In this document: positions 32,110 to 60,942 of the stretch, in pieces
How the letters are laid out: each line of letters starts with the position of its first letter
Numbering within the stretch: position 1 is the first letter of the stretch
Assembly (NCBI GenBank): GCA_963771075.1
Contig: CAVYSE010000023.1
Coordinates: 32,001-96,000 of the forward strand
Direction of reading: 5' to 3'
Length of the DNA: 64,000 bases
From: a candidate division FCPU426 bacterium
GTDB lineage: Bacteria; Oederibacteriota; Muellerivitia; Muellerivitales; Muellerivitaceae
Notes under the pieces: generated by a model
Database searches by the model: none
Told to the model about the DNA's origin: nothing
The model's input: only the letters and a program-made list of their open reading frames with translations
Program-made: the position numbers and the translations under genes

Positions 32110-33522
32110 CACTCTTGTCCTAAATAAAGGACTAAAAAAAGACACCTCCGACTGAAGTAGAATTGGGTTAGTCGACAAGCCCAAAGCGACGGTTACCAGC
32201 CGTCGCTACTTCAAACATCCGGAGGCGTATTTCGATGGTACCACCAACCAGTCTTTTTGCCCAAGTGTTGAAAATTGTGGATCGCACGGCTTTTGAACGA
32301 ATTGTGCGGGAGTTTGAAGCCGAAAAACACGCCAAGGGGTTCAGTTGCTGGAATCAGTTTGTTTCCATGCTTTTCTGCCAGATGGGAGCCGCCCATTCCT
32401 TGAGGGAAATCTGTGGTGGCCTCCACACGGCCCTTGGGAAATTGACCCATTTGGGTCTTTGCGAAGCACCCACTAAATCCACCTTGGCTTACGCTAACGC
32501 CAACCGTCCTTGGCAGGTTCAGCAAAGTCTTTTCTACCATCTGCTATCGAAGTGTCAGCTACAGGCGGCCATCTCGAAGAGGAAATTCAAGTTCAAGAAT
32601 CCCCTCTACAGCCTGGACTCCAGCACCATTGATCTTTGTTTGTCAGTCTTCGACTGGGCAAAGTTCCGTAGGACCAAAGGGGCCATCAAACTCCATCTCT
32701 TGCTGGATCATCAGGGATACTTGCCCTGCTGGGGACTCGTAACGGAGGGAGGCGTGCATGACGTGAAAGTGGCTCAAAAGCTGGATTTTCCGGTGGATTC
32801 AATCGTAGTGATGGATCGGGGATATGTGGATTTCTTTCTTCTGGCCCGATGGACGTTCCAAGGCGTGTGGTGGGTGACCCGTGCCAAGATCAACATGGCC
32901 TACGAGGTGGTGAAGAACCTGCCGGTTCCGAAAACGGGCAACGTCCTGAAGGACCAAGTGATACGGTTAACAACGTTTCGGTCACAGGAAGCCTACCCGA
33001 AAGAGATGCGACGAGTGGTGGTATGGGACGAAGACCAGAAGCGGGAACTCGTATTCCTTACCAACCACATGGGTTTTGCTGCCTCGACGGTGGCGGCCAT
33101 CTACAAGGAACGTTGGCAGATCGAGTTGTTCTTCAAGGCTCTCAAGCAGAACTTACGGGTGAAGACTTTCGTAGGGACCACTGAGAATGCTGTTCAGACG
33201 CAGATTTGGACAGCATTGATTGCCATGCTGCTGTTGAAATTCCTTCAACTGAAGAGCCATATCGCCTGGAGCCTGTCCCACTTGGCGGCCATGCTGCGGA
33301 TGAATCTATTGACCTACCGCGATTTGTGGGCTTGGTTGGATGCACCATTCCTGGTGGCGAGATTGGAACCGGCGGAAAAACAGATGGAATTAATACCCTC
33401 GTGATTTGGACAGCATCCGGACGAAAGGGGGGGGCTTATCCCTGGAAATTCACAAACCTGTCCAAAATCGCTTGTTTTTCTTGGGGGGCAGCGGTCAGAT
33501 TGAGTTGTTTAGGATAGCAGTG
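32110..33522 (+). mobile_element. IS4-family insertion sequence with 9-bp target duplication
   Basis: Terminal inverted repeats CACTCTTGTCCTAAATAA and TTGTTTAGGATAGCAGTG; AAATTTGAT repeated at 32101-32109 and 33523-33531. Confidence 0.95.
32235..33404 (+). CDS. IS4-family transposase
   Basis: LDSSTI, MDRGY, YKERWQIELFFKALKQ (YREK motif). Confidence 0.95.
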   Translation: MVPPTSLFAQVLKIVDRTAFERIVREFEAEKHAKGFSCWNQFVSMLFCQMGAAHSLREICGGLHTALGKLTHLGLCEAPTKSTLAYANANRPWQVQQSLFYHLLSKCQLQAAISKRKFKFKNPLYSLDSSTIDLCLSVFDWAKFRRTKGAIKLHLLLDHQGYLPCWGLVTEGGVHDVKVAQKLDFPVDSIVVMDRGYVDFFLLARWTFQGVWWVTRAKINMAYEVVKNLPVPKTGNVLKDQVIRLTTFRSQEAYPKEMRRVVVWDEDQKRELVFLTNHMGFAASTVAAIYKERWQIELFFKALKQNLRVKTFVGTTENAVQTQIWTALIAMLLLKFLQLKSHIAWSLSHLAAMLRMNLLTYRDLWAWLDAPFLVARLEPAEKQMELIPS

Positions 33523-46587: not shown

Positions 46588-47691
46588 TTGAAAATCGCCA
46601 TCGTTCACGACTGGATGACGGGGATGAGGGGCGGGGAGAAGGTGCTTCTCGCGCTCCTGGAGCTTTTTCCCCAGGCGGACCTTTTCACGCTGGTTTACCG
46701 GCCCGACAGGATGGACCCGGTTTTCCAAAAACGCCGGGTGACCACTTCCTTCCTCCAGAGACTCCCCTTCGGGCGTACTCGCTACCAGTACTATCTTCCA
46801 CTTTTCTGGGAACTGATGGGCGGCTTCGATCTTTCATCCTACGACCTGATTGTTTCCTCCAGCTCGGCCTGCGCCAAGTGGGTCCGCAACCCCAAGAAAA
46901 CCCTCCATGTCTGCTATTGCCATACGCCCATGCGGTATGTCTGGGATCTTTTTGACGATTACTTCGAGAAAGAGGCGAAGGCACCGGTGCGATGGGCGGC
47001 GCGGGCCTTCCGGTCCTACCTCCAGCGCTGTGACCTGAAATCGAACGAGGGAGTCACCCAGTTCCTGGCCAACTCCAACGAGGTGAAGGAGCGCATTCAA
47101 AGGCTCTACGGCCGGGAATCGGAAGTACTCCATCCGCCTGTGGACGTGGACCATTTCCGGTTGCGGGAAGGGAAGGGGGAATACTTCCTTGCCCTCTCGG
47201 CCCTGGTTCCCTATAAAAAAATCGAGTTGGCGGTGAGGGTTTGCACGAAAAGGGCCTGGCCTCTCTGGGTGGTGGGGCAGGGCCAGGAGGAAAATAAATT
47301 GCGAACCCTGGCTGGCCCCACGGTTTTCTTCAAAGGCTGGGCGAAGGAGGAAGAACTGCCGGATATTTACGCCCGCGCTAAGGCGCTGGTTTTCCCGGGC
47401 AAGGAGGATTTCGGCATCGTGCCGGTGGAAGCCATGGCCTGCGGGGTTCCCGTGGTGGCCTTTGGGGAGGGAGGCGTCCTGGATTCGGTCCAGGACGGCG
47501 TCACAGGCGTCTTTTTCCACAAGCAAACCGAAGAAGCGCTGGAGGAAGCCCTCGAGAAATTCGAGAAGATGGAATTTGATCCCAAGGTTCTCCGCGAGAA
47601 GGCCAACCAGTTTTCCAAGGCCCGGTTTTTGTTCAAGGCGCAGGTGTATTTTCGAAGACTGTTTGGCATCAAGCCAATTGGAGAAGAGTAG
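46588..47691 (+). CDS. GT4 glycosyltransferase
   Basis: HDWMTGMRGGE, CHTPMRY, EDFGIVPVEAMACG. Confidence 0.92.
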   Translation: MKIAIVHDWMTGMRGGEKVLLALLELFPQADLFTLVYRPDRMDPVFQKRRVTTSFLQRLPFGRTRYQYYLPLFWELMGGFDLSSYDLIVSSSSACAKWVRNPKKTLHVCYCHTPMRYVWDLFDDYFEKEAKAPVRWAARAFRSYLQRCDLKSNEGVTQFLANSNEVKERIQRLYGRESEVLHPPVDVDHFRLREGKGEYFLALSALVPYKKIELAVRVCTKRAWPLWVVGQGQEENKLRTLAGPTVFFKGWAKEEELPDIYARAKALVFPGKEDFGIVPVEAMACGVPVVAFGEGGVLDSVQDGVTGVFFHKQTEEALEEALEKFEKMEFDPKVLREKANQFSKARFLFKAQVYFRRLFGIKPIGEE

Positions 47692-47738
47692 TCGACAGTC
47701 AACAGTCGGCAGTCGACAGAAGGCAAACGACAAACGGC
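47690..47738 (+). repeat. 7-nt tandem repeat array 1 (forward)
   Basis: AGTCGAC AGTCAAC AGTCGGC AGTCGAC AGAAGGC AAACGAC AAACGGC. Confidence 0.85.
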
Positions 47739-47771
47739 AGACCAAAGTCGCCAACTCCAAAGGAACGGCGT

Positions 47772-48128
47772 ATGTCATCCGATCATGAAAAGTTGGACGT
47801 TTGGAAAAAATCGATGAAGCTTGTCACAGAGATTTACCAAATTAGTCAAAAGTTCCCAAAAGAAGAAATCTATGGTTTAACCAGCCAAATGAGAAGATCG
47901 GCCATATCCATACCTAGCAACATAGCCGAAGGTAAAGGACGCCACACGAACCCGGAATTTTGCCAATTTCTAATCCATGTGCGGGGATCATTATTGGAAC
48001 TGGAAACACAATTGCAAATCGCCTGTAATCTGGGCTATCTGGAAAGCCAAAAGATGGATGATTTAAAAGTTAAAACTGCGGAAATTGGTAAAATGCTAAA
48101 CGGTTTAATTAAAGCAATCGGCCGCTGA
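47772..48128 (+). CDS. four-helix-bundle protein (23S rRNA IVS protein/bAvd-like family)
   Basis: LDVWKKSM...FPKEEIYGLTSQMRRSAISIPSNIAEG...GSLLELETQL. Confidence 0.92.
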   Translation: MSSDHEKLDVWKKSMKLVTEIYQISQKFPKEEIYGLTSQMRRSAISIPSNIAEGKGRHTNPEFCQFLIHVRGSLLELETQLQIACNLGYLESQKMDDLKVKTAEIGKMLNGLIKAIGR

Positions 48129-48137
48129 GGTTTGGGC

Positions 48138-48165
48138 AGTAACCGTCGACCGTCGACTGCCAACT
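48138..48165 (-). repeat. 7-nt tandem repeat array 2 (reverse)
   Basis: AGTAACC GTCGACC GTCGACT GCCAACT; reverse complement reads AGTTGGC AGTCGAC GGTCGAC GGTTACT. Confidence 0.8.
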
Positions 48166-48180
48166 TTCTCGCGAGGTTTT

Positions 48181-49572
48181 ATGAGATTTCCACTCAAATC
48201 CCTTTTCGCTTCCATCAGCTTCGTGCTGGACGGCCTTTTGGTGGCCGGGTGCTTCATGCTGGCCGATTGGATCCGATTTCGATCGGGGTGGTTGAGGGTG
48301 GATGAACCCACCTATTACCCCCATTACCGGACTTTTTTGGCCGCGGTGATGAGTGTTTACTGGCTGGTTTTCAAGTATTTGGGCCTTTATCGAAGCCGCC
48401 GGGGTGTCTCCGTAGTGGATGAATTGGTTAAGGTCCTTTGGGGGTCCGTCATCGCGACCCTTTTGATCGCGGCCGGGACTTTCCTGGTGCATTTTTTCGC
48501 CTTTTCCCGGCTGGTGGTTACCTTCGCGGCCGGGTTGATCATTGTCAGCGTGTGGTTCGAAAGAACCCTATTGAGAAGGATACAAATCCTCCTCCGCCGC
48601 AATGGAGTGGGTGTCACCCGCGTCCTGGTGGTGGGTACGGGCGAGACCGCCAAGATATTCCTTCAGCGATTGCGGCATAACCCGGGCCTAGGCTACCGGG
48701 TAGTCGGGGTGGTTTCGGAGGGAAATAAAACCCTTGGGGAAGTGGAAGGGATCCGGGTATTGGGGAACCTGGCCCGTTTCGACCAAGTCATGTCCAAGCA
48801 CATACCCGACGAGGTGATTTTCGCCCTGCCCGCTTCCGCCCATGGGGAATTGCTTCCCCTATTGGTGACCCTTCAGGATACCCAGGTGAAATACAAGATC
48901 ATTTCCGACCTCTTTGGCCTGATCACCAATCCCCTGGAAAGCGACGTTCTTTTAGACATGCCTGTCTTCGAAATGAAGGAAGCCCCCTTGAACGCCTGGC
49001 ATAACCGGACGATCAAACGGACTTTTGATTTTGTTTTTTCCCTGGTGGCGATCCTGTTGTTGAGCCCGATCTGGATTTTGGTGGCCCTGGGGGTCAAGCT
49101 CACCTCGCCCGGCCCCATCCTGTTCCATCAAAAGCGGGTTGGGAGGGATGGAAGGGTCTTTCACATTCGGAAATTCCGCACCATGCAGGTGGGAACGGAA
49201 ACCGTGGCCTTTACCGCCCAAAAGGACCCACGGGTCACGCCTCTTGGCAAGTTCCTGCGCAAGACCAGCCTGGATGAGCTACCCCAGCTCCTGAACGTCT
49301 TGACCGGGCGCATGAGCCTGGTCGGGCCCCGGCCCGAGGTGCCAGGCCTGGTGGAGAAATTCCAAAAAGAGATACCCCGTTATTTTGAGCGCCATCAGGT
49401 GAAATCGGGTATCACGGGTTGGGCCCAGGTGAACGGCTTCCGAGGCAACACGTCCCTGACCGAGAGGGTGAAATACGACATCTATTACATCGAGAACTGG
49501 AGCCTTCTGCTCGACATCAAGATCATCCTAAGGACTGTTTTGGATATTTTGGAGCATGAGCATGCTTATTAA
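48181..49572 (+). CDS. undecaprenyl-phosphate glucose phosphotransferase (WcaJ-like)
   Basis: KRTFD, KFRTM, DPRVT, SLDELPQL, MSLVGPRPE, GITGWAQVNG. Confidence 0.92.
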   Translation: MRFPLKSLFASISFVLDGLLVAGCFMLADWIRFRSGWLRVDEPTYYPHYRTFLAAVMSVYWLVFKYLGLYRSRRGVSVVDELVKVLWGSVIATLLIAAGTFLVHFFAFSRLVVTFAAGLIIVSVWFERTLLRRIQILLRRNGVGVTRVLVVGTGETAKIFLQRLRHNPGLGYRVVGVVSEGNKTLGEVEGIRVLGNLARFDQVMSKHIPDEVIFALPASAHGELLPLLVTLQDTQVKYKIISDLFGLITNPLESDVLLDMPVFEMKEAPLNAWHNRTIKRTFDFVFSLVAILLLSPIWILVALGVKLTSPGPILFHQKRVGRDGRVFHIRKFRTMQVGTETVAFTAQKDPRVTPLGKFLRKTSLDELPQLLNVLTGRMSLVGPRPEVPGLVEKFQKEIPRYFERHQVKSGITGWAQVNGFRGNTSLTERVKYDIYYIENWSLLLDIKIILRTVLDILEHEHAY

Positions 49573-49575
49573 GGC

Positions 49576-49603
49576 AGTCGACGGTCCGCAGTCGACAGTT
49601 GGC
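49576..49603 (+). repeat. 7-nt tandem repeat array 3 (forward)
   Basis: AGTCGAC GGTCCGC AGTCGAC AGTTGGC. Confidence 0.8.
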
Positions 49604-49644
49604 AACAAAGCCGGTTCGAGTCCAAAGAGGGAACGGTTAATTAG

Positions 49645-50088
49645 ATGATTGATAAAGCATCCAGAAGAAAATTGACGGAAAAATTAAGACAGTTTGTGAG
49701 CGGTCGGATTACAAATTATCAGTATGAAGATATGACTCCGAGGCGGTCGCCCGATAAGGCGATTTGGGCAATTCAGCAAAGAGTTTGGACGGTTTACGAT
49801 GATTTACATGAACACATACTTACAGGTAAATGGGCACTGAATAAAGAAGGGAGGGCAATTGTTTCAAGGTATATTCTCTTTCTTCATTCGAATTTCGAAT
49901 ATGAGTGGCCCAAACATCCTTCGGAAAATATTCTGGGGAAGATTTTGTCTCTGTTTAGTCTTGGACTAATCCCAAGATTGTTTTGGAATAAAAAATGGAA
50001 TCAATCAGGAAATATTAAAGCGTGGCCTTTCATAAGCCAAAAAGACTTAAATAGGGCTAAAAGAAAACCCAGGTTATTAAATGGTTAA
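49645..50088 (+). CDS. hypothetical protein (AT-rich accessory ORF)
   Basis: 147-aa ORF with a purine-rich RBS-like segment upstream; visibly AT-richer than its neighbours. Confidence 0.7.
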   Translation: MIDKASRRKLTEKLRQFVSGRITNYQYEDMTPRRSPDKAIWAIQQRVWTVYDDLHEHILTGKWALNKEGRAIVSRYILFLHSNFEYEWPKHPSENILGKILSLFSLGLIPRLFWNKKWNQSGNIKAWPFISQKDLNRAKRKPRLLNG

Positions 50089-50153
50089 GGTTTTATTCGT
50101 AAAACTTCGAATTTTACGATTCGCAAATCGCAGAGAATGAGGAATGAACTAAA

Positions 50154-51071
50154 ATGAAAATCCTTGTAACTGGCGGCGCGGGGTTCATCGGTAGTCATGT
50201 AGTAGACGCCTATCTGGCGGCGAGGCACGAGGTGATCGTGGTCGATAACCTGTCCACGGGAAAGGCGGCGAACCTAAACCCCAAGGCGAAGTTTTACGAG
50301 ATGGATATCCTCAACGAATCCCTACAGCAACTCCTGCAAAACGAGAAAGTCGAAGTGGTAAACCACCACGCGGCCCAGATCAAGGTTAAGGCTTCCCTGG
50401 AAGACCCTTATTTCGATGTGAAGGTGAACGTGCTGGGATCGGTCCTTCTCCTCGACCTCTGCCGCAGAGCTGGGGTCCGGAAATTCATCTACGCTTCTTC
50501 CGGTGGGGCCCAATATGGTGAGGCGGAAGCGGGACCTTTTCCCGAAACCCAACCGGCCCGGCCATTTTCGGTTTACGGCGCCAGCAAATATTCGGTAGAA
50601 CTTTACGCGGACGTTTTCTCCCAGGCCTTTGGCATGGAAAGGGTCATCCTGCGTTACGCCAATGTGTACGGGCCACGGCAAGACGCCCTGGGGGAGGGAG
50701 GGGCGGTGGCCATCTTCACCCACGGGATGCTCCATGGGGGTGATTTCCAGATCTTCGGCGACGGCTACAACCTACGGGATTACGTTTATGTTAAGGATGT
50801 GGCCAAGGCCAATTTGCTGGCCCTTGAATACCCTCAAAACGGCACTTTTAATATCGGAACGGGGGTGGGGACGACTACTTCGGAACTTTTCCAAGCCCTG
50901 GCGAAAGCCACTGGTTATAAACTTCCAGCCCTGCATACGGTGGCCCGCCTGGGGGACCTGAAAAAAAGCTTGTTGGACCCCACCCTTGCTAAAAAGGACC
51001 TAAAATGGGAACCCGCCTATGACTTGGCGGCTGGGTTGAAAGAAACCATCGAATACTACAAATCCCGATGA
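50154..51071 (+). CDS. NAD-dependent epimerase (UDP-glucose 4-epimerase-like)
   Basis: GGAGFIGSH, SSGGA, YGASK, RYANVYGPRQ, RDYVYV. Confidence 0.9.
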   Translation: MKILVTGGAGFIGSHVVDAYLAARHEVIVVDNLSTGKAANLNPKAKFYEMDILNESLQQLLQNEKVEVVNHHAAQIKVKASLEDPYFDVKVNVLGSVLLLDLCRRAGVRKFIYASSGGAQYGEAEAGPFPETQPARPFSVYGASKYSVELYADVFSQAFGMERVILRYANVYGPRQDALGEGGAVAIFTHGMLHGGDFQIFGDGYNLRDYVYVKDVAKANLLALEYPQNGTFNIGTGVGTTTSELFQALAKATGYKLPALHTVARLGDLKKSLLDPTLAKKDLKWEPAYDLAAGLKETIEYYKSR

Positions 51072-51087
51072 GGTTTTAATTTGTTTT

Positions 51088-51161
51088 CCAAACTGCCAAC
51101 TGCCAACCCTTCGACTTTGCTCAGGGCCCTGAGGTTCTCGAAGGGCTGCCGACCGCGGACT
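51088..51161 (-). repeat. 7-nt tandem repeat array 4 (reverse) interrupted by a REP-like palindrome
   Basis: CCAAACT GCCAACT GCCAAC [palindrome 51107-51145] CT GCCGACC GCGGACT. Confidence 0.75.
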
Positions 51162-51169
51162 GAAGTACC

Positions 51170-52213
51170 ATGAAGGCAATCATCCTCGTAGGCGGCCAGG
51201 GAACCCGGATGCGGCCCCTAACGGACCGGCTTCCGAAGAACATCGCGCCCCTTTGCGGCACCCCCTTCCTCACCTACCAATTCGAGTTCTTGAAATCCGC
51301 CGGGGTCAAGGAAATCGTCCTTTCGCTTGGGTATCGTCCGGACGACATCCGCCAGATCTACGGCAACGGCCGAAAATTCGGCATGAAGATCTATTACGTC
51401 ATGGAAGACGCTCCCCTGGGAACCTCGGGGGCCATCAAGAACGCCGAGCGCTTCGTCAAGGGATCCCCGGTGGTGGTCATGAACGGGGACATCTTGACGG
51501 ATATCCCCCTGAAAAAAATGATCGCGGCCCATTACGAGGCCGGCAACCTGGCCACCCTGGGCCTGGTGCGGGTGGAGGACCCCAGCCCTTACGGCCTGGT
51601 GATTTTGAATTCCCAGGGGAAAATCCAAAAGTTCCTCGAAAAACCCAAGCCCGATGAGACGGTGGTGGACACCATCAACGCCGGGGTTTACGTCTTCGAG
51701 CCGGGGGTGATGGATTTTATTCCCTCCGGCGTCAACCATTCCGCGGAAAGAGGCCTTTTCCCCGCGCTGTTGCAGGCGGGCGTGCCCTTCGGGGGCTATG
51801 TTTGGAAAGGCTATTGGCAGGATATCGGCACGCCCCGCAAGTACCTCACCACCCAGTGGGATGTCCTGAACGGGGCCTTTCCCATCCATTCACGCGTGAA
51901 GAGGGGACCCAACCATATCTACCGGGGCAAGCGGGTTTGGATCGGCCGGGACGCGGTGGTGCAGGGACCCGTGCTTTTGGAAGAAGGATGCTTCATCGGC
52001 GACGGGGCTAAGATATTGCCCTATTCGGTGATCGGGAGAAAATGCATGATCGGGCCGGGAGCCGTGATCTCCAAAAGCCTTTTGTGGGATGGCGTCAAAG
52101 TGGGGAAAGACGCGAAATTGGAAGAAGCGATCCTGGGACGCAAATGCGTCGTTGGGGAAGGCGCCCAGCCTTCTCCCGGGGGGGTATGGGGGGACGAAAG
52201 TCAGGTTTCTTGA
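51170..52213 (+). CDS. NDP-sugar pyrophosphorylase (mannose-1-phosphate guanylyltransferase-like)
   Basis: ILVGGQGTRMRPLT, PLGTSG, NGDILTD, FLEKP, WQDIGTP, C-terminal LbH. Confidence 0.9.
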   Translation: MKAIILVGGQGTRMRPLTDRLPKNIAPLCGTPFLTYQFEFLKSAGVKEIVLSLGYRPDDIRQIYGNGRKFGMKIYYVMEDAPLGTSGAIKNAERFVKGSPVVVMNGDILTDIPLKKMIAAHYEAGNLATLGLVRVEDPSPYGLVILNSQGKIQKFLEKPKPDETVVDTINAGVYVFEPGVMDFIPSGVNHSAERGLFPALLQAGVPFGGYVWKGYWQDIGTPRKYLTTQWDVLNGAFPIHSRVKRGPNHIYRGKRVWIGRDAVVQGPVLLEEGCFIGDGAKILPYSVIGRKCMIGPGAVISKSLLWDGVKVGKDAKLEEAILGRKCVVGEGAQPSPGGVWGDESQVS

Positions 52214-58842: not shown

Positions 58843-60942
58843 ATGGTTTCTATGGGTTTGATTCTGGTTCTCCTCGCGCTTGCGGGCCTGGGTTTCGGCG
58901 AATTCGCCGCCCTTCCCTTCGGGCGCCACTCCAACCTCGGGCAGAATCTTGCCGCCGGTCTGACCCTCCTCTCCTCCCTTTGCGGGGGAATAGGTTTGGC
59001 AGTCTGGTTTTCCGTAGGGATACCGCTTTCCATCGGCATGCCCTGGCAGGTTCCCGGGGGCACTCTGGCCCTGGGGCTCGACGGCTTGACGGCATTTTTC
59101 CTGATTCCCGTTTTTCTCGTCTCCGCACTGGGGGCCCTTTTCGGCCTGGAATACTGGAAACAATCGGAGAATCCCGGATCCGGTCAATCCCTCCGGTTTT
59201 TTTACGGGTTCCTTTCACTCGGGATGGGGCTCTTGCTGATGGCCCGCAACAGCGTGCTTTTTTTGTTGGGCTGGGAAATCATGGCGGTGGCGGCCTACTT
59301 TTTGATCGTGGTGGAGGACAAAGAAAAAAACGTCCGGCAGGCCGGGTGGATCTATTGGGTTTCGGCCCACCTGGGGCTCGCGGCCCTCATGGTGATGTTT
59401 CTCCTGATGCGAAACCTGCTGGGAAGTTTCGATTGGTCGGTTTTGCCCCTGGACTCGCGGGAAAATTTACTCGGGTCCGCCCTTTTCTTGCTCGCCCTCT
59501 TCGGTTTCGGCTTCAAAGCCGGGCTCATGCCCTTTCATTTCTGGCTTCCCCGGGCCCATTCCAGCGCCCCCAGCCATGTCTCCGGCATCATGTCCGGCGT
59601 GATGCTCAACATGGGAATTTACGGGATCATCCGGATCCTGGGATACCTTCCCCAGCCCCCGGTGTGGTGGGGTATCCTGCTGTTGGTTATGGGAATCGCC
59701 TCGGGGGTTTTGGGAATCCTCCTGGCCATCTCCGAAAGCGACCTGAAGCGCATGCTGGCCTACAGCAGTATCGAGAATATCGGAATCATCTTCATGGGTT
59801 TGGGGTTGGCCCTGGTCGGGCGTTCCTCGGGCAACAACCTCCTACTCCAACTGGGTATGTTGGCGGCGCTCTTCCATGTCCTCAACCACAGCCTGTTCAA
59901 GACCGCGCTTTTCTACTGCTCGGGCTCGGTCTTGCACGCCTGCCACACCCGCCGGATGGACCACCTGGGGGGCTTGATCCCGCTTCTTCCCCTCACCGCT
60001 TTGGCCTTCGTGTTCGCCTCCTGCGCGGCCTGCGGCCTCCCCCCCTTGAACGGATTCATCGGCGAATGGATTCTCTACCAGGGGCTTTTCCACTTGTCGG
60101 CCGGGGGGTCCATCTTTCGCGCCCTCCTGGGCACCCTGGCCATCGGGGGATTGGCCCTGATCGGCGCATTAAGCGTGGTTTGTTTCGTGCGCTCCTTCGG
60201 CACCATCTTCCTCGGTTCGCCCCGGTTTTCCCTGAAGCCCCATGAAAAGGAAAAAAAGGGGTTCATGATCTTTACCCTGGCCCTGTTGGTGGGGGCCTGC
60301 ATGGGCGTGAGCTTTCTTCCCGGAAAGATCCTCTTCATATTAGGGAAGGCGATGGAAACCTGGGACACTGGCCTCTCCCCGGCTTCGCCCTCCCTTGAGA
60401 GCCTGGTTCCCCTGGGCGTCCTGGCCCTTTTGAACCTAACGTTATTTATTGTTTTGGGCGCCGGAATCGGGTGGTTTGTCTTGAGGAAACAAAAGGCGAA
60501 GCAGGCACAGCCCGCCGGGCTGGAACAGCCGATCGGGCTGGGACAGCCAATCGGGCTGGGACAGCCAATCGAGTTGGCACGACCCCACCCGCAGGGAATG
60601 GGATTGGAAACCTGGAGCTGCGGTTATATCGATCCCGCTTCTCCCCGGCTTCAATACACGGCTTCTTCCTTCGGCGAAATCCTCACGAAAACCTACCATT
60701 GGTTCATTCCCGCAAGGTCCCACCAGCCGGGCCCGGGGGGTGTTTTTGCCGGGAAATCGTGGTTTGCCACCCTTCCCTTTGACCGTATCCTCGGGGGATT
60801 CCTCATTCCTACCATCCGTTCCTGGGGGGACAAAATTTCAGTACTCTTGAAACTGCAACAGGGCCGGACTTCCATTTACCTTCTTTATATCGTGGTCATC
60901 TTCCTCGTGGCCCTTTGCTGGGGCAGTTGGAGCCTGCCATGA
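58843..60942 (+). CDS. HyfB/NuoL-like proton-translocating membrane subunit (copy 1)
   Basis: WEIM, KAGLMPFHFWLPRAH, KRMLAYSSIEN, HSLFK, PPLNGF, WSCGY. Confidence 0.9.
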   Translation: MVSMGLILVLLALAGLGFGEFAALPFGRHSNLGQNLAAGLTLLSSLCGGIGLAVWFSVGIPLSIGMPWQVPGGTLALGLDGLTAFFLIPVFLVSALGALFGLEYWKQSENPGSGQSLRFFYGFLSLGMGLLLMARNSVLFLLGWEIMAVAAYFLIVVEDKEKNVRQAGWIYWVSAHLGLAALMVMFLLMRNLLGSFDWSVLPLDSRENLLGSALFLLALFGFGFKAGLMPFHFWLPRAHSSAPSHVSGIMSGVMLNMGIYGIIRILGYLPQPPVWWGILLLVMGIASGVLGILLAISESDLKRMLAYSSIENIGIIFMGLGLALVGRSSGNNLLLQLGMLAALFHVLNHSLFKTALFYCSGSVLHACHTRRMDHLGGLIPLLPLTALAFVFASCAACGLPPLNGFIGEWILYQGLFHLSAGGSIFRALLGTLAIGGLALIGALSVVCFVRSFGTIFLGSPRFSLKPHEKEKKGFMIFTLALLVGACMGVSFLPGKILFILGKAMETWDTGLSPASPSLESLVPLGVLALLNLTLFIVLGAGIGWFVLRKQKAKQAQPAGLEQPIGLGQPIGLGQPIELARPHPQGMGLETWSCGYIDPASPRLQYTASSFGEILTKTYHWFIPARSHQPGPGGVFAGKSWFATLPFDRILGGFLIPTIRSWGDKISVLLKLQQGRTSIYLLYIVVIFLVALCWGSWSLP
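60507..60578 (+). repeat. in-frame 18-bp tandem repeat, four copies
   Basis: Units resembling ACAGCCAATCGGGCTGGG encode QPAGLE QPIGLG QPIGLG QPIELA. Confidence 0.9.

Follow-up and report, generated by a model that had tools for sequence, protein, structure and literature searches.

We analysed a 64,000-nucleotide stretch (the window) of contig CAVYSE010000023.1 from a candidate division FCPU426 bacterium, in which a glycan operon carries four arrays of a heptamer repeat and two small accessory genes among its core genes. Two separate systems in this operon can now be told apart, namely a heptamer-armed gene and a serine-integrase-type cassette. The core GT4 glycosyltransferase gene (46588..47691, + strand; PF00534/PF13439), which precedes wcaJ across the phylum, ends in a TAG stop codon that forms the first three bases of array 1. 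This left arm (47689..47719, +) consists of the units TAGTCGA, CAGTCAA, CAGTCGG and CAGTCGA followed by CAG, that is, four units plus CAG or five anchors, and its right side decays into degenerate units up to about 47744. A four-helix-bundle (S23p/IVP) gene of 118 aa with a GC content of 0.40 follows (47772..48128, +; PF05635, 140 bits; TIGR02436, 134 bits). It is the only PF05635 match in the genome in a profile search, and the closest solved relative of its product is PDB 2GSC (E 2e-30), which has five chains. Array 2, the right arm (48139..48166, −), ends 14 nt upstream of the start of the next core gene, encoding a wcaJ-like undecaprenyl-phosphate glucose phosphotransferase (48181..49572, +; TIGR03023 above cut-off). 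The places and orientations that the initial annotation had given for the four arrays were borne out by sequence inspection.

We then compared the GT4-wcaJ junction among relatives (G000 is the window's own genome, G001 the sister species and G002 and G003 are congeners; L numbers are loci of relatives). wcaJ was found in 30 of 40 relatives, and 29 of those loci were examined. Among family or order relatives, 6 of 22 carry the four-helix-bundle gene between GT4 and wcaJ, and none of the 7 loci belonging to other families does so. Inverted arms frame the gene in all six, and the unit variants are lineage-specific. Among the loci without the gene, L016 and L017 hold a forward array remnant and L023 a reverse one, while GT4 and wcaJ are coupled in L020/L021 and most outgroups. 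The proposal that arrays 1 and 2 and the gene make up an insertable unit is upheld, since empty alleles exist and all six gene-bearing relatives show this framing. The expectation of empty sites was borne out in that GT4-wcaJ junctions without the gene exist, but several of them hold a different, promoter-like spacer: the empty alleles L005, L006, L007, L011, L013, L015 and L018 share a TTGCCC...TAAACT spacer of this kind, which is absent from the gene-bearing alleles.

The history of the gene was followed in a tree of 27 PF05635 proteins from the returned loci, which excludes three weak sub-cut-off matches and has many other matches outside it. The seven genes at the GT4-wcaJ site need 2 changes on this tree versus 6.4 with shuffled labels, with which a single origin of the seven would be compatible. 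Between G000 and G001, fourfold-degenerate sites are identical at 27/36 positions in the four-helix-bundle gene versus 195/431 in GT4, wcaJ and the epimerase gene downstream (Fisher p = 0.0008), and the corresponding identity of the gene to five other genomes is 0.26-0.54. Since this identity lies above that of the flanking genes, the gene was exchanged recently with G001 at the same site. The heptamer units themselves show a high turnover between G000 and G001. By eye, most of the 27 four-helix-bundle loci have periodic arms, the sequence of which is clade-specific. A parallel design is seen around GxxExxY genes of G000 (C18:141632, C5:56717 and C18:120130, two of them broken), whose inverted arms consist of a different, octamer-like unit; these genes were therefore rejected as partners of the heptamer.

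The arrays belong to a genome-wide family. The heptamer unit is C[AG]G[TC][CT][GC][AG], and the outermost unit often has TAG or AAG. Scanning with a weight matrix gave 107 arrays of at least three units in the 4.39 Mb genome versus 0 in a 2.0 Mb fifth-order Markov control, and thus the window arrays are 4 of 107. They lie in many kinds of operon, which does not support the idea of a system special to the glycan locus. A motif-free period scan returned 55 arrays of period 7 versus 3, 9 and 9 for periods 5, 10 and 11; periods 6, 8 and 9 gave 321, 34 and 84 arrays. By our own, crude gene calls, 34 of the 107 arrays start between −8 and +12 nt from a same-strand stop codon, mostly at +2 to +5. The number of stop-proximal starts in 200 random intergenic placements was 2.5 on average and 7 at most, and it was 0 for the mirror orientation.

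Neighbouring arrays within 150 nt form 30 pairs, of which 21 are convergent, 9 tandem and none divergent. A TTAA-type core occurs in 10 of 17 short pair spacers (2.1 expected), so that the gene-free pairs make up a single family of elements, each about 70-110 bp long. For 62 of the 107 arrays, the next 150 nt downstream contain no partner arm; the solo arrays comprise 23 forward ones after stops versus 5 reverse ones before starts, although 53 arrays remain unclassified under the crude gene calls. The number of anchors peaks sharply at five: 2, 7, 19, 67, 6, 4 and 2 arrays have two, three, four, five, six, seven and eight anchors, respectively. The detection requires three units, which trims the low end of this distribution and leaves the high end intact, and the 6 six-anchor arrays are about the number expected from a chance anchor rate of 9.6%. 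Ninety-nine of the 107 array sequences are distinct. The few identical arrays (G000 contigs C1, C3, C6, C9, C13, C21 and C28) sit in larger duplicated segments of long ParB-like ORFs and are not free copies.

It had been noted that arms 1 and 2 can pair and loop out the gene. The match of 13 of 14 bases between 47704-47717 and 48152-48165 is real, but such pairing is not pair-specific. Among 19 distinct gene-free pairs, an arm matches its own partner at 15.6 of 21 positions versus 15.4 for other arms (permutation p = 0.31), and the duplex energy with its own partner is no better than with other arms (permutation p = 0.86). Any two arms are predicted to pair at about −30 kcal/mol; thus, pairing is allowed, and the conserved thing is the motif, not a particular stem. 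In the predicted fold of 47680-48190, arms 1 and 2 are paired, with z = −0.77 and 24 of 100 shuffled sequences as stable, and so neither the fold nor the covariation check bore out the stem idea. Because paired arms do not co-vary, they look more like binding sites than like stems under tuning.

For the most part, array abundance follows the presence of the four-helix-bundle gene. It was measured by a 17-base pattern, whose matches may overlap. The seven genomes with the gene at the GT4-wcaJ site have 115, 94, 72, 61, 60, 27 and 2 matches, 16 of the 18 other family genomes have 0-10, and 16 genomes outside the family have 0. Within the genus, 115 and 61 matches with the gene contrast with 6 and 2 without it. 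We also compared four G000 regions, picked for holding arrays, with five relatives, and found that the gene-free inverted pairs are presence/absence insertions at operon junctions. G002 and G003 have no array at 8 of 9 array-bearing junctions and a degenerate array at the ninth. Several of the empty junctions are coupled through TAATG or ATGA overlaps or are 10-30 nt long, and some junctions with arrays in G000 are occupied by other repeat families in relatives (G003, G007 or G008). One G000 junction retains the ancestral TAATG at the right end of the element, and the first unit provides a new TAG stop, which parallels the provision of the GT4 stop by array 1. We rejected the idea that the gene-free pairs are remnants at places where relatives hold four-helix-bundle genes of other clades: 9 of 13 such loci map to five G000 junctions, where no CAGTYSR array was seen by eye.

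Downstream of wcaJ, the arrays are arranged differently. Array 3 (49575..49605, +), a solo forward array, starts 2 nt past the wcaJ stop codon. Array 4 (51089..51162, −), a solo reverse five-unit array, lies between a core NAD-dependent epimerase/dehydratase gene (50154..51071, +; PF01370; GC 0.55) and a core NTP transferase gene (51170..52213, +; PF00483; mannose-1-phosphate guanylyltransferase-like). The epimerase gene follows wcaJ in 23 of the 29 relatives' loci, other families included, and the remaining 6 end or carry other genes within the 1.5-kb flank. The NTP transferase gene follows the epimerase gene in 15 loci, and in none of the 29 does it directly follow wcaJ. Arrays 3 and 4 therefore sit at two separate junctions. 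The suggestion that they enclose one accessory cassette was rejected, because the epimerase is a core gene with host-like GC and array 4 follows its stop codon rather than an AT-rich gene; the two arrays are independent solo arms, array 3 not being the partner of array 4. Array 3 or a remnant of it occurs in relatives both with and without cargo. A 39-nt REP-like palindrome (51107..51145, no strand assigned) is inserted within one unit of array 4 and splits the array. Such palindromes split heptamer arrays at CAG; of 25 loose matches in the genome, 6 are no more than 90 nt from an array, and array 3 of L004 is interrupted by a similar palindrome. The wcaJ-epimerase junction has also received a third kind of insertion, seen in L002, L003, L006, L018, L019 and L023: a copy of the first ~35 nt of the epimerase gene stands upstream of it, and a conserved stretch of ~60 nt (twice in L003) comes next.

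The second accessory gene, a hypothetical ORF of 147 aa with a GC content of 0.37 (49645..50088, +), lies between two sites unrelated to the heptamer. Site A (49613..49636, +), beginning seven bases past array 3, is a degenerate, detached copy of the tRNA-Asn(GTT) 3' end from the T-arm to the acceptor stem and a putative attB-type arm. Site B (50098..50143, +), a putative attP-type arm, has a motif at 50118-50123 and, 18 nt further on, a GA at 50142-50143 as the predicted crossover. The protein has no family in Pfam or NCBIfam; its single-sequence structure model was unusable (pLDDT 45) and its Atlas matches are unnamed clusters only. G000 contains 7 detached tRNA-Asn 3'-end copies besides the tRNA gene. 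Site A stands alone, free of cargo, before the epimerase gene in L004 and L016; the same junction holds site A, an unrelated ORF and site B in L005, L009 and L014, and another ORF with site B in L076. Site B is present in 22 of 31 family genomes (control, 0) and lies in rows of AT-rich single genes, and site A is often found at the beginning of a row. Scored with a matrix derived from 33 sites in other genomes, site B of the window reaches 41.6 bits, and G000 has 7 matches, including two two-cassette rows on C22. The window ORF and its site B recur in unrelated rows with 79% (G016) and 76% (G005) nucleotide identity. Both matches span exactly 49643-50143, the end of the homology coinciding with the predicted crossover. 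Since the ORF recurs with site B and lies between a tRNA-Asn 3'-end copy and site B, it belongs to a different system from the heptamers.

Other identities for these sites were considered. The stretch 50095-50150 was rejected as a fifth heptamer array, as it is site B. Nor is site B the 28-bp palindromic cassette site of the genome, a multi-copy family in G000 that has TGTCCACG arms and is unrelated to sites A and B. An attC or dif-like nature was rejected on the site B consensus. A hairpin element of ~30 nt is found repeatedly at the same point in site B, right after CAAATC (L148:3620, 5355 and 6379; L077:2249; L149:2588; L014). Transposase-like ORFs of 389 aa with the same N-terminus, presumably IS4-like, occur in the window (32235-33404) and in G000 (C5:104755 and C24:88732), ~300-350 nt past two detached site A copies.

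The spacing within the two sites points to the likely enzyme. GGTTCG is common to A and B, and a GA-type core follows after 13 nt in 13 of 17 A-type sites and after 18 nt, as in the window, in 28 of 54 B-type sites. The motif is thus 5 bp further from the crossover in B than in A, which is the attB/attP signature of large serine integrases: in the LI and A118 integrases, a 5-bp shift of the zinc-domain motif separates attB from attP (PMC3783163). Two Latescibacterota loci (L154 and L159) with the same arm, the 18-nt spacing and a different tRNA-like end fit this rule independently; a Larkinella match (L158) looks like a chance match within a gene and was discarded. A large serine recombinase gene was found behind tRNA-Asn in 1 of 29 tRNA-Asn loci (G023); it is oriented toward the tRNA, and its reading frame runs through an inverted B-arm copy. 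Its relatives in G014 (65% identity) and G024 (63%) and a broken copy in G001 have the same junction of site A, GA and inverted arm. In G014 and G024, site A does not lie within a tRNA gene and further B arms flank the cargo. An integrase combining resolvase, recombinase and zinc-ribbon parts thus lies beside the same arms in G023, G014, G024 and G001 (broken). An inverted arm adjoins the four integrase genes, and none is evident to the right of the crossover in the cassette sites. We consider it probable, from these sequence comparisons, that the hypothetical ORF is a one-gene cassette, likely inserted in trans by a large serine integrase that targets tRNA-Asn and here used a detached copy of the tRNA end. 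One-armed circles would insert at site A and regenerate a usable A, and the rows would grow from the A end.

Other recombinase genes with tRNA neighbours were seen. In the set comprising L130 (2100-2170), L145, L146, L166 and L167, the last codons of the serine recombinases are read from the antisense of the tRNA 3' end, the more distant ones doing so at tRNA-Gln. A tyrosine integrase was rejected as the cassette enzyme because no candidate lies beside A or B sites: none of the 8 PF00589 matches in G000 is beside such a site, no IntI-specific model having been used. Four tyrosine integrases of G000 (C7:97523, C7:108122, C27:55311 and C3:383213) are 62-78% identical to one another; three lie directly behind tRNA genes (Arg, Val and Ser) and one beside a tRNA-like remnant.

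Contigs from four low-depth DNA runs match parts of the sequence, arrays included, and none of them contains a joint that skips the four-helix-bundle gene or the hypothetical ORF. Elsewhere in the window, an in-frame tandem repeat of 18 nt (GLGQPI-like) lies at 60516-60571 within a gene for a large membrane subunit.

The architecture of the locus, the empty and filled alleles, the recent lateral exchange of the gene and the family-wide five-anchor length and polarity are established. We give somewhat better than an even chance to the explanation as a whole, in which the four-helix-bundle gene with its inward-pointing arms is a small insertion between core genes, likely the gene-bearing copy of the family of ~100 arrays, and the hypothetical ORF is a separate serine-integrase cassette, the more probable part. 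The initial annotation had suggested that the arrays bind the oligomeric four-helix protein, and such binding would fit the five-anchor length and the co-occurrence with the gene. An array of five anchors, whose 7-nt pitch does not match the helical repeat, would suit a single strand wound around a ring of five members, much as TRAP and Hfq wind periodic RNA around themselves. The protein may thus assemble into a pentameric ring and wrap one single-stranded array of five anchors, each subunit taking one NAG anchor at the 7-nt pitch. Avd is described as a positively charged pentamer of barrel shape that resembles S23 proteins and takes up flipped-out RNA bases between its protomers (10.1101/2023.10.23.563531). 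Contact between ring and array might maintain the motif and help the copying or protection of the elements. The gene with its arms would be the master of a REPIN-like family, many copies of which would be the gene-free 70-110-bp inverted pairs at operon junctions. A stop codon supplied by the first unit, together with loose mRNA pairing that is open to any two arms, may be why such insertions are tolerated; the pairing would bring the upstream stop near the downstream ribosome site.

Several observations weigh against this interpretation. No nuclease or transposase linked to the arrays was found among the matches examined in the genome; of 20 Y1-transposase (PF01797) matches, none is bracketed by two arrays and one lies within 500 nt of an array. 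No target-site duplication is evident at the compared junctions, and the diversity of the array sequences is unlike that of copies of a recently transposing element. The empty GT4-wcaJ alleles, having a different, promoter-like spacer (by eye), are not clean excision products. The patch of high G000-G001 identity extends into the start of wcaJ, and ordinary homologous recombination could suffice for the recent exchange. The stop-side polarity follows in part from the inverted design itself. The co-occurrence of arrays and gene is overstated because kin genomes are not independent; G021 has 65 pattern matches and an empty site, G005 has 32 and its wcaJ locus was not found, and G011 has the gene and only 2 matches (with a variant unit and an assembly that is 65% complete). 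As for the cassette, the window's site A is degenerate at the crossover, 26 of the 54 B-type sites lack the 18-nt spacing (6 have 17 nt, 15 have no scorable core and several have a small insertion), the cassettes carry one conserved arm only, and a search with the G023 query found no integrase in G000.

Alternatively, the protein might be a domesticated RNA-binding regulator and the arrays its operators after stop codons, tuning termination, stability or coupling, with nothing mobile now. The five-anchor limit, the position at stop codons, the excess of forward solo arrays after stops over reverse ones before starts and the retention of the motif while array sequences vary would all suit such a host regulon. 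However, the congeners live without the gene and without nearly all of the arrays, unrelated repeat families occupy the same junctions in other relatives, and the gene itself moved recently, so that we regard a regulon as unlikely. A further step down in probability stands the idea that the arms are RNA-processing stems as in rRNA intervening sequences (IVS), in which arms 1 and 2 would pair, RNase III would excise the gene and the protein would be a passenger. The IVS of Coxiella has the same gene family, with heptamers preceding the ORF, and its 28-bp terminal stem is cleaved by RNase III (PMC4990558). The predicted pairing of arms 1 and 2 agrees with this idea, as does the finding that a gene's own arm is the best partner in 4 of 7 loci at the GT4-wcaJ site. 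Here, though, the stem is short and interrupted, 24 of 100 shuffled sequences fold just as stably, the gene-free pairs show no partner-specific complementarity, most arrays have no nearby downstream partner, and cutting without ligation would part GT4 from wcaJ. Stem excision keeps a small probability, with no positive evidence from the fold or covariation tests.

Still less probable, in our view, are neutral repeats, that is, arrays that arise and spread through slippage and gene conversion while the gene merely rides along at one site. The high unit turnover between G000 and G001 and the two array-rich genomes without the gene at the GT4-wcaJ site could be understood in this way. Against it stand the sharp peak of array length at five anchors with no decay, the always convergent pairs with their common central core, and the clade-specific periodic arms seen by eye at most of the 27 four-helix-bundle loci.

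Beyond the insertion and cassette interpretation, a bolder generalization is offered tentatively, since we find it rather less likely to be right than wrong. PF05635 proteins may be sequence-specific pentameric readers of five-anchor heptamer arrays and define a class of enzyme-less mobile elements, with one master and ~100 gene-free or solo copies per genome, while the tRNA-Asn serine integrase would build integron-like single-gene arrays from one-armed donors at portable copies of the tRNA end. If true, the reader idea would explain the excess of heptamer repeats in bacteria and would tie the PF05635 family to the arrays of Xanthomonas, Nostoc and Beggiatoaceae, which were described without a protein. 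It also puts a direct and inexpensive test within reach for a protein family that is very large and of unknown function, with a defined ligand of five NAG anchors at a 7-nt pitch. The genus provides a natural with/without contrast, and the clade-specific units are suited to swap experiments. For the cassette system, a named integrase, the arms of target and donor and a predicted crossover are likewise available, and the route would represent integron-like capture of genes by a serine enzyme that acts at a distance from the tRNA gene.

We finally compared both systems with known ones. In REPIN-RAYT systems, inverted repeats frame one gene, and many further inverted pairs without a gene lie in extragenic space. 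The heptamer family resembles them in its many extragenic inverted pairs that are polymorphic between relatives; unlike a RAYT, however, the window gene does not encode an HUH transposase and has no known catalytic site, and the arms are degenerate tandem heptamers rather than fixed palindromes. With the S23p-ORF IVS of Coxiella, the locus shares a PF05635 gene, low GC, heptamers upstream, which in Coxiella lie inside the RNase III-cut stem, complementary ends and a sporadic distribution (PMC4990558). Unlike an rRNA IVS, the window gene lies between GT4 and wcaJ, in mRNA and not inside an rRNA gene; its stem is short and imperfect, and ~100 further arrays exist in the genome. The geometry of the GGGAATC and GGGGA(C/T)T heptamer arrays of Xanthomonas and Nostoc was published without a protein (PMC4692102). 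Together with the TAACTGA repeats of Beggiatoaceae (PMC4679880), these arrays have in common with ours a heptamer unit, mostly four units, convergent pairs, a genome-wide spread, and the sense strand after stops and the antisense strand before starts. The window unit differs from theirs and has no G-run, hence no quadruplex-type G-tracts. A link of those repeats to a four-helix-bundle gene is absent from the passages searched of both papers, and no paper that connects PF05635 genes with dispersed heptamer arrays outside rRNA came to light in a literature search of incomplete coverage that did not extend to supplements. The protein is also related to Avd of diversity-generating retroelements (PF22296, 46 bits), a pentameric nucleic-acid-binding barrel (10.1101/2023.10.23.563531), but it is not such an Avd by the NF033474 equivalog model (score of 42 against a cut-off of 80 bits). 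No reverse transcriptase (PF00078) match lies on contig C23, which carries the window, template and variable repeats not having been searched. The 11 matches on other contigs, six in number, include ten with identical scores and likely reflect a recent group II intron burst.

Turning to the cassette, it resembles the att systems of large serine integrases in the donor-arm motif placed 5 bp further from the crossover and in the integrase beside the site (PMC3783163). The rows recall the SCC/ECC cassette chromosomes (PMC6222049) and tRNA islands with partial tRNA copies (10.1101/2020.12.28.424599), in which units without their own recombinase are stacked. They differ from both in their single-gene units, one conserved arm and integron-like rows, and from tRNA islands in starting at detached tRNA-Asn 3'-end copies inside operons, not behind the tRNA gene. 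An attC site is an RYYYAAC...GTTRRRY hairpin; unlike an integron, the site B consensus, read by eye, contains none. No paper on serine-integrase single-gene rows at tRNA-Asn copies was found in the same incomplete literature coverage. To these known systems the present analysis adds the limit of five anchors per array, arms that do not covary with their partners, the contrast within one genus, the recent exchange of the gene and the rows that start from detached tRNA-end copies.

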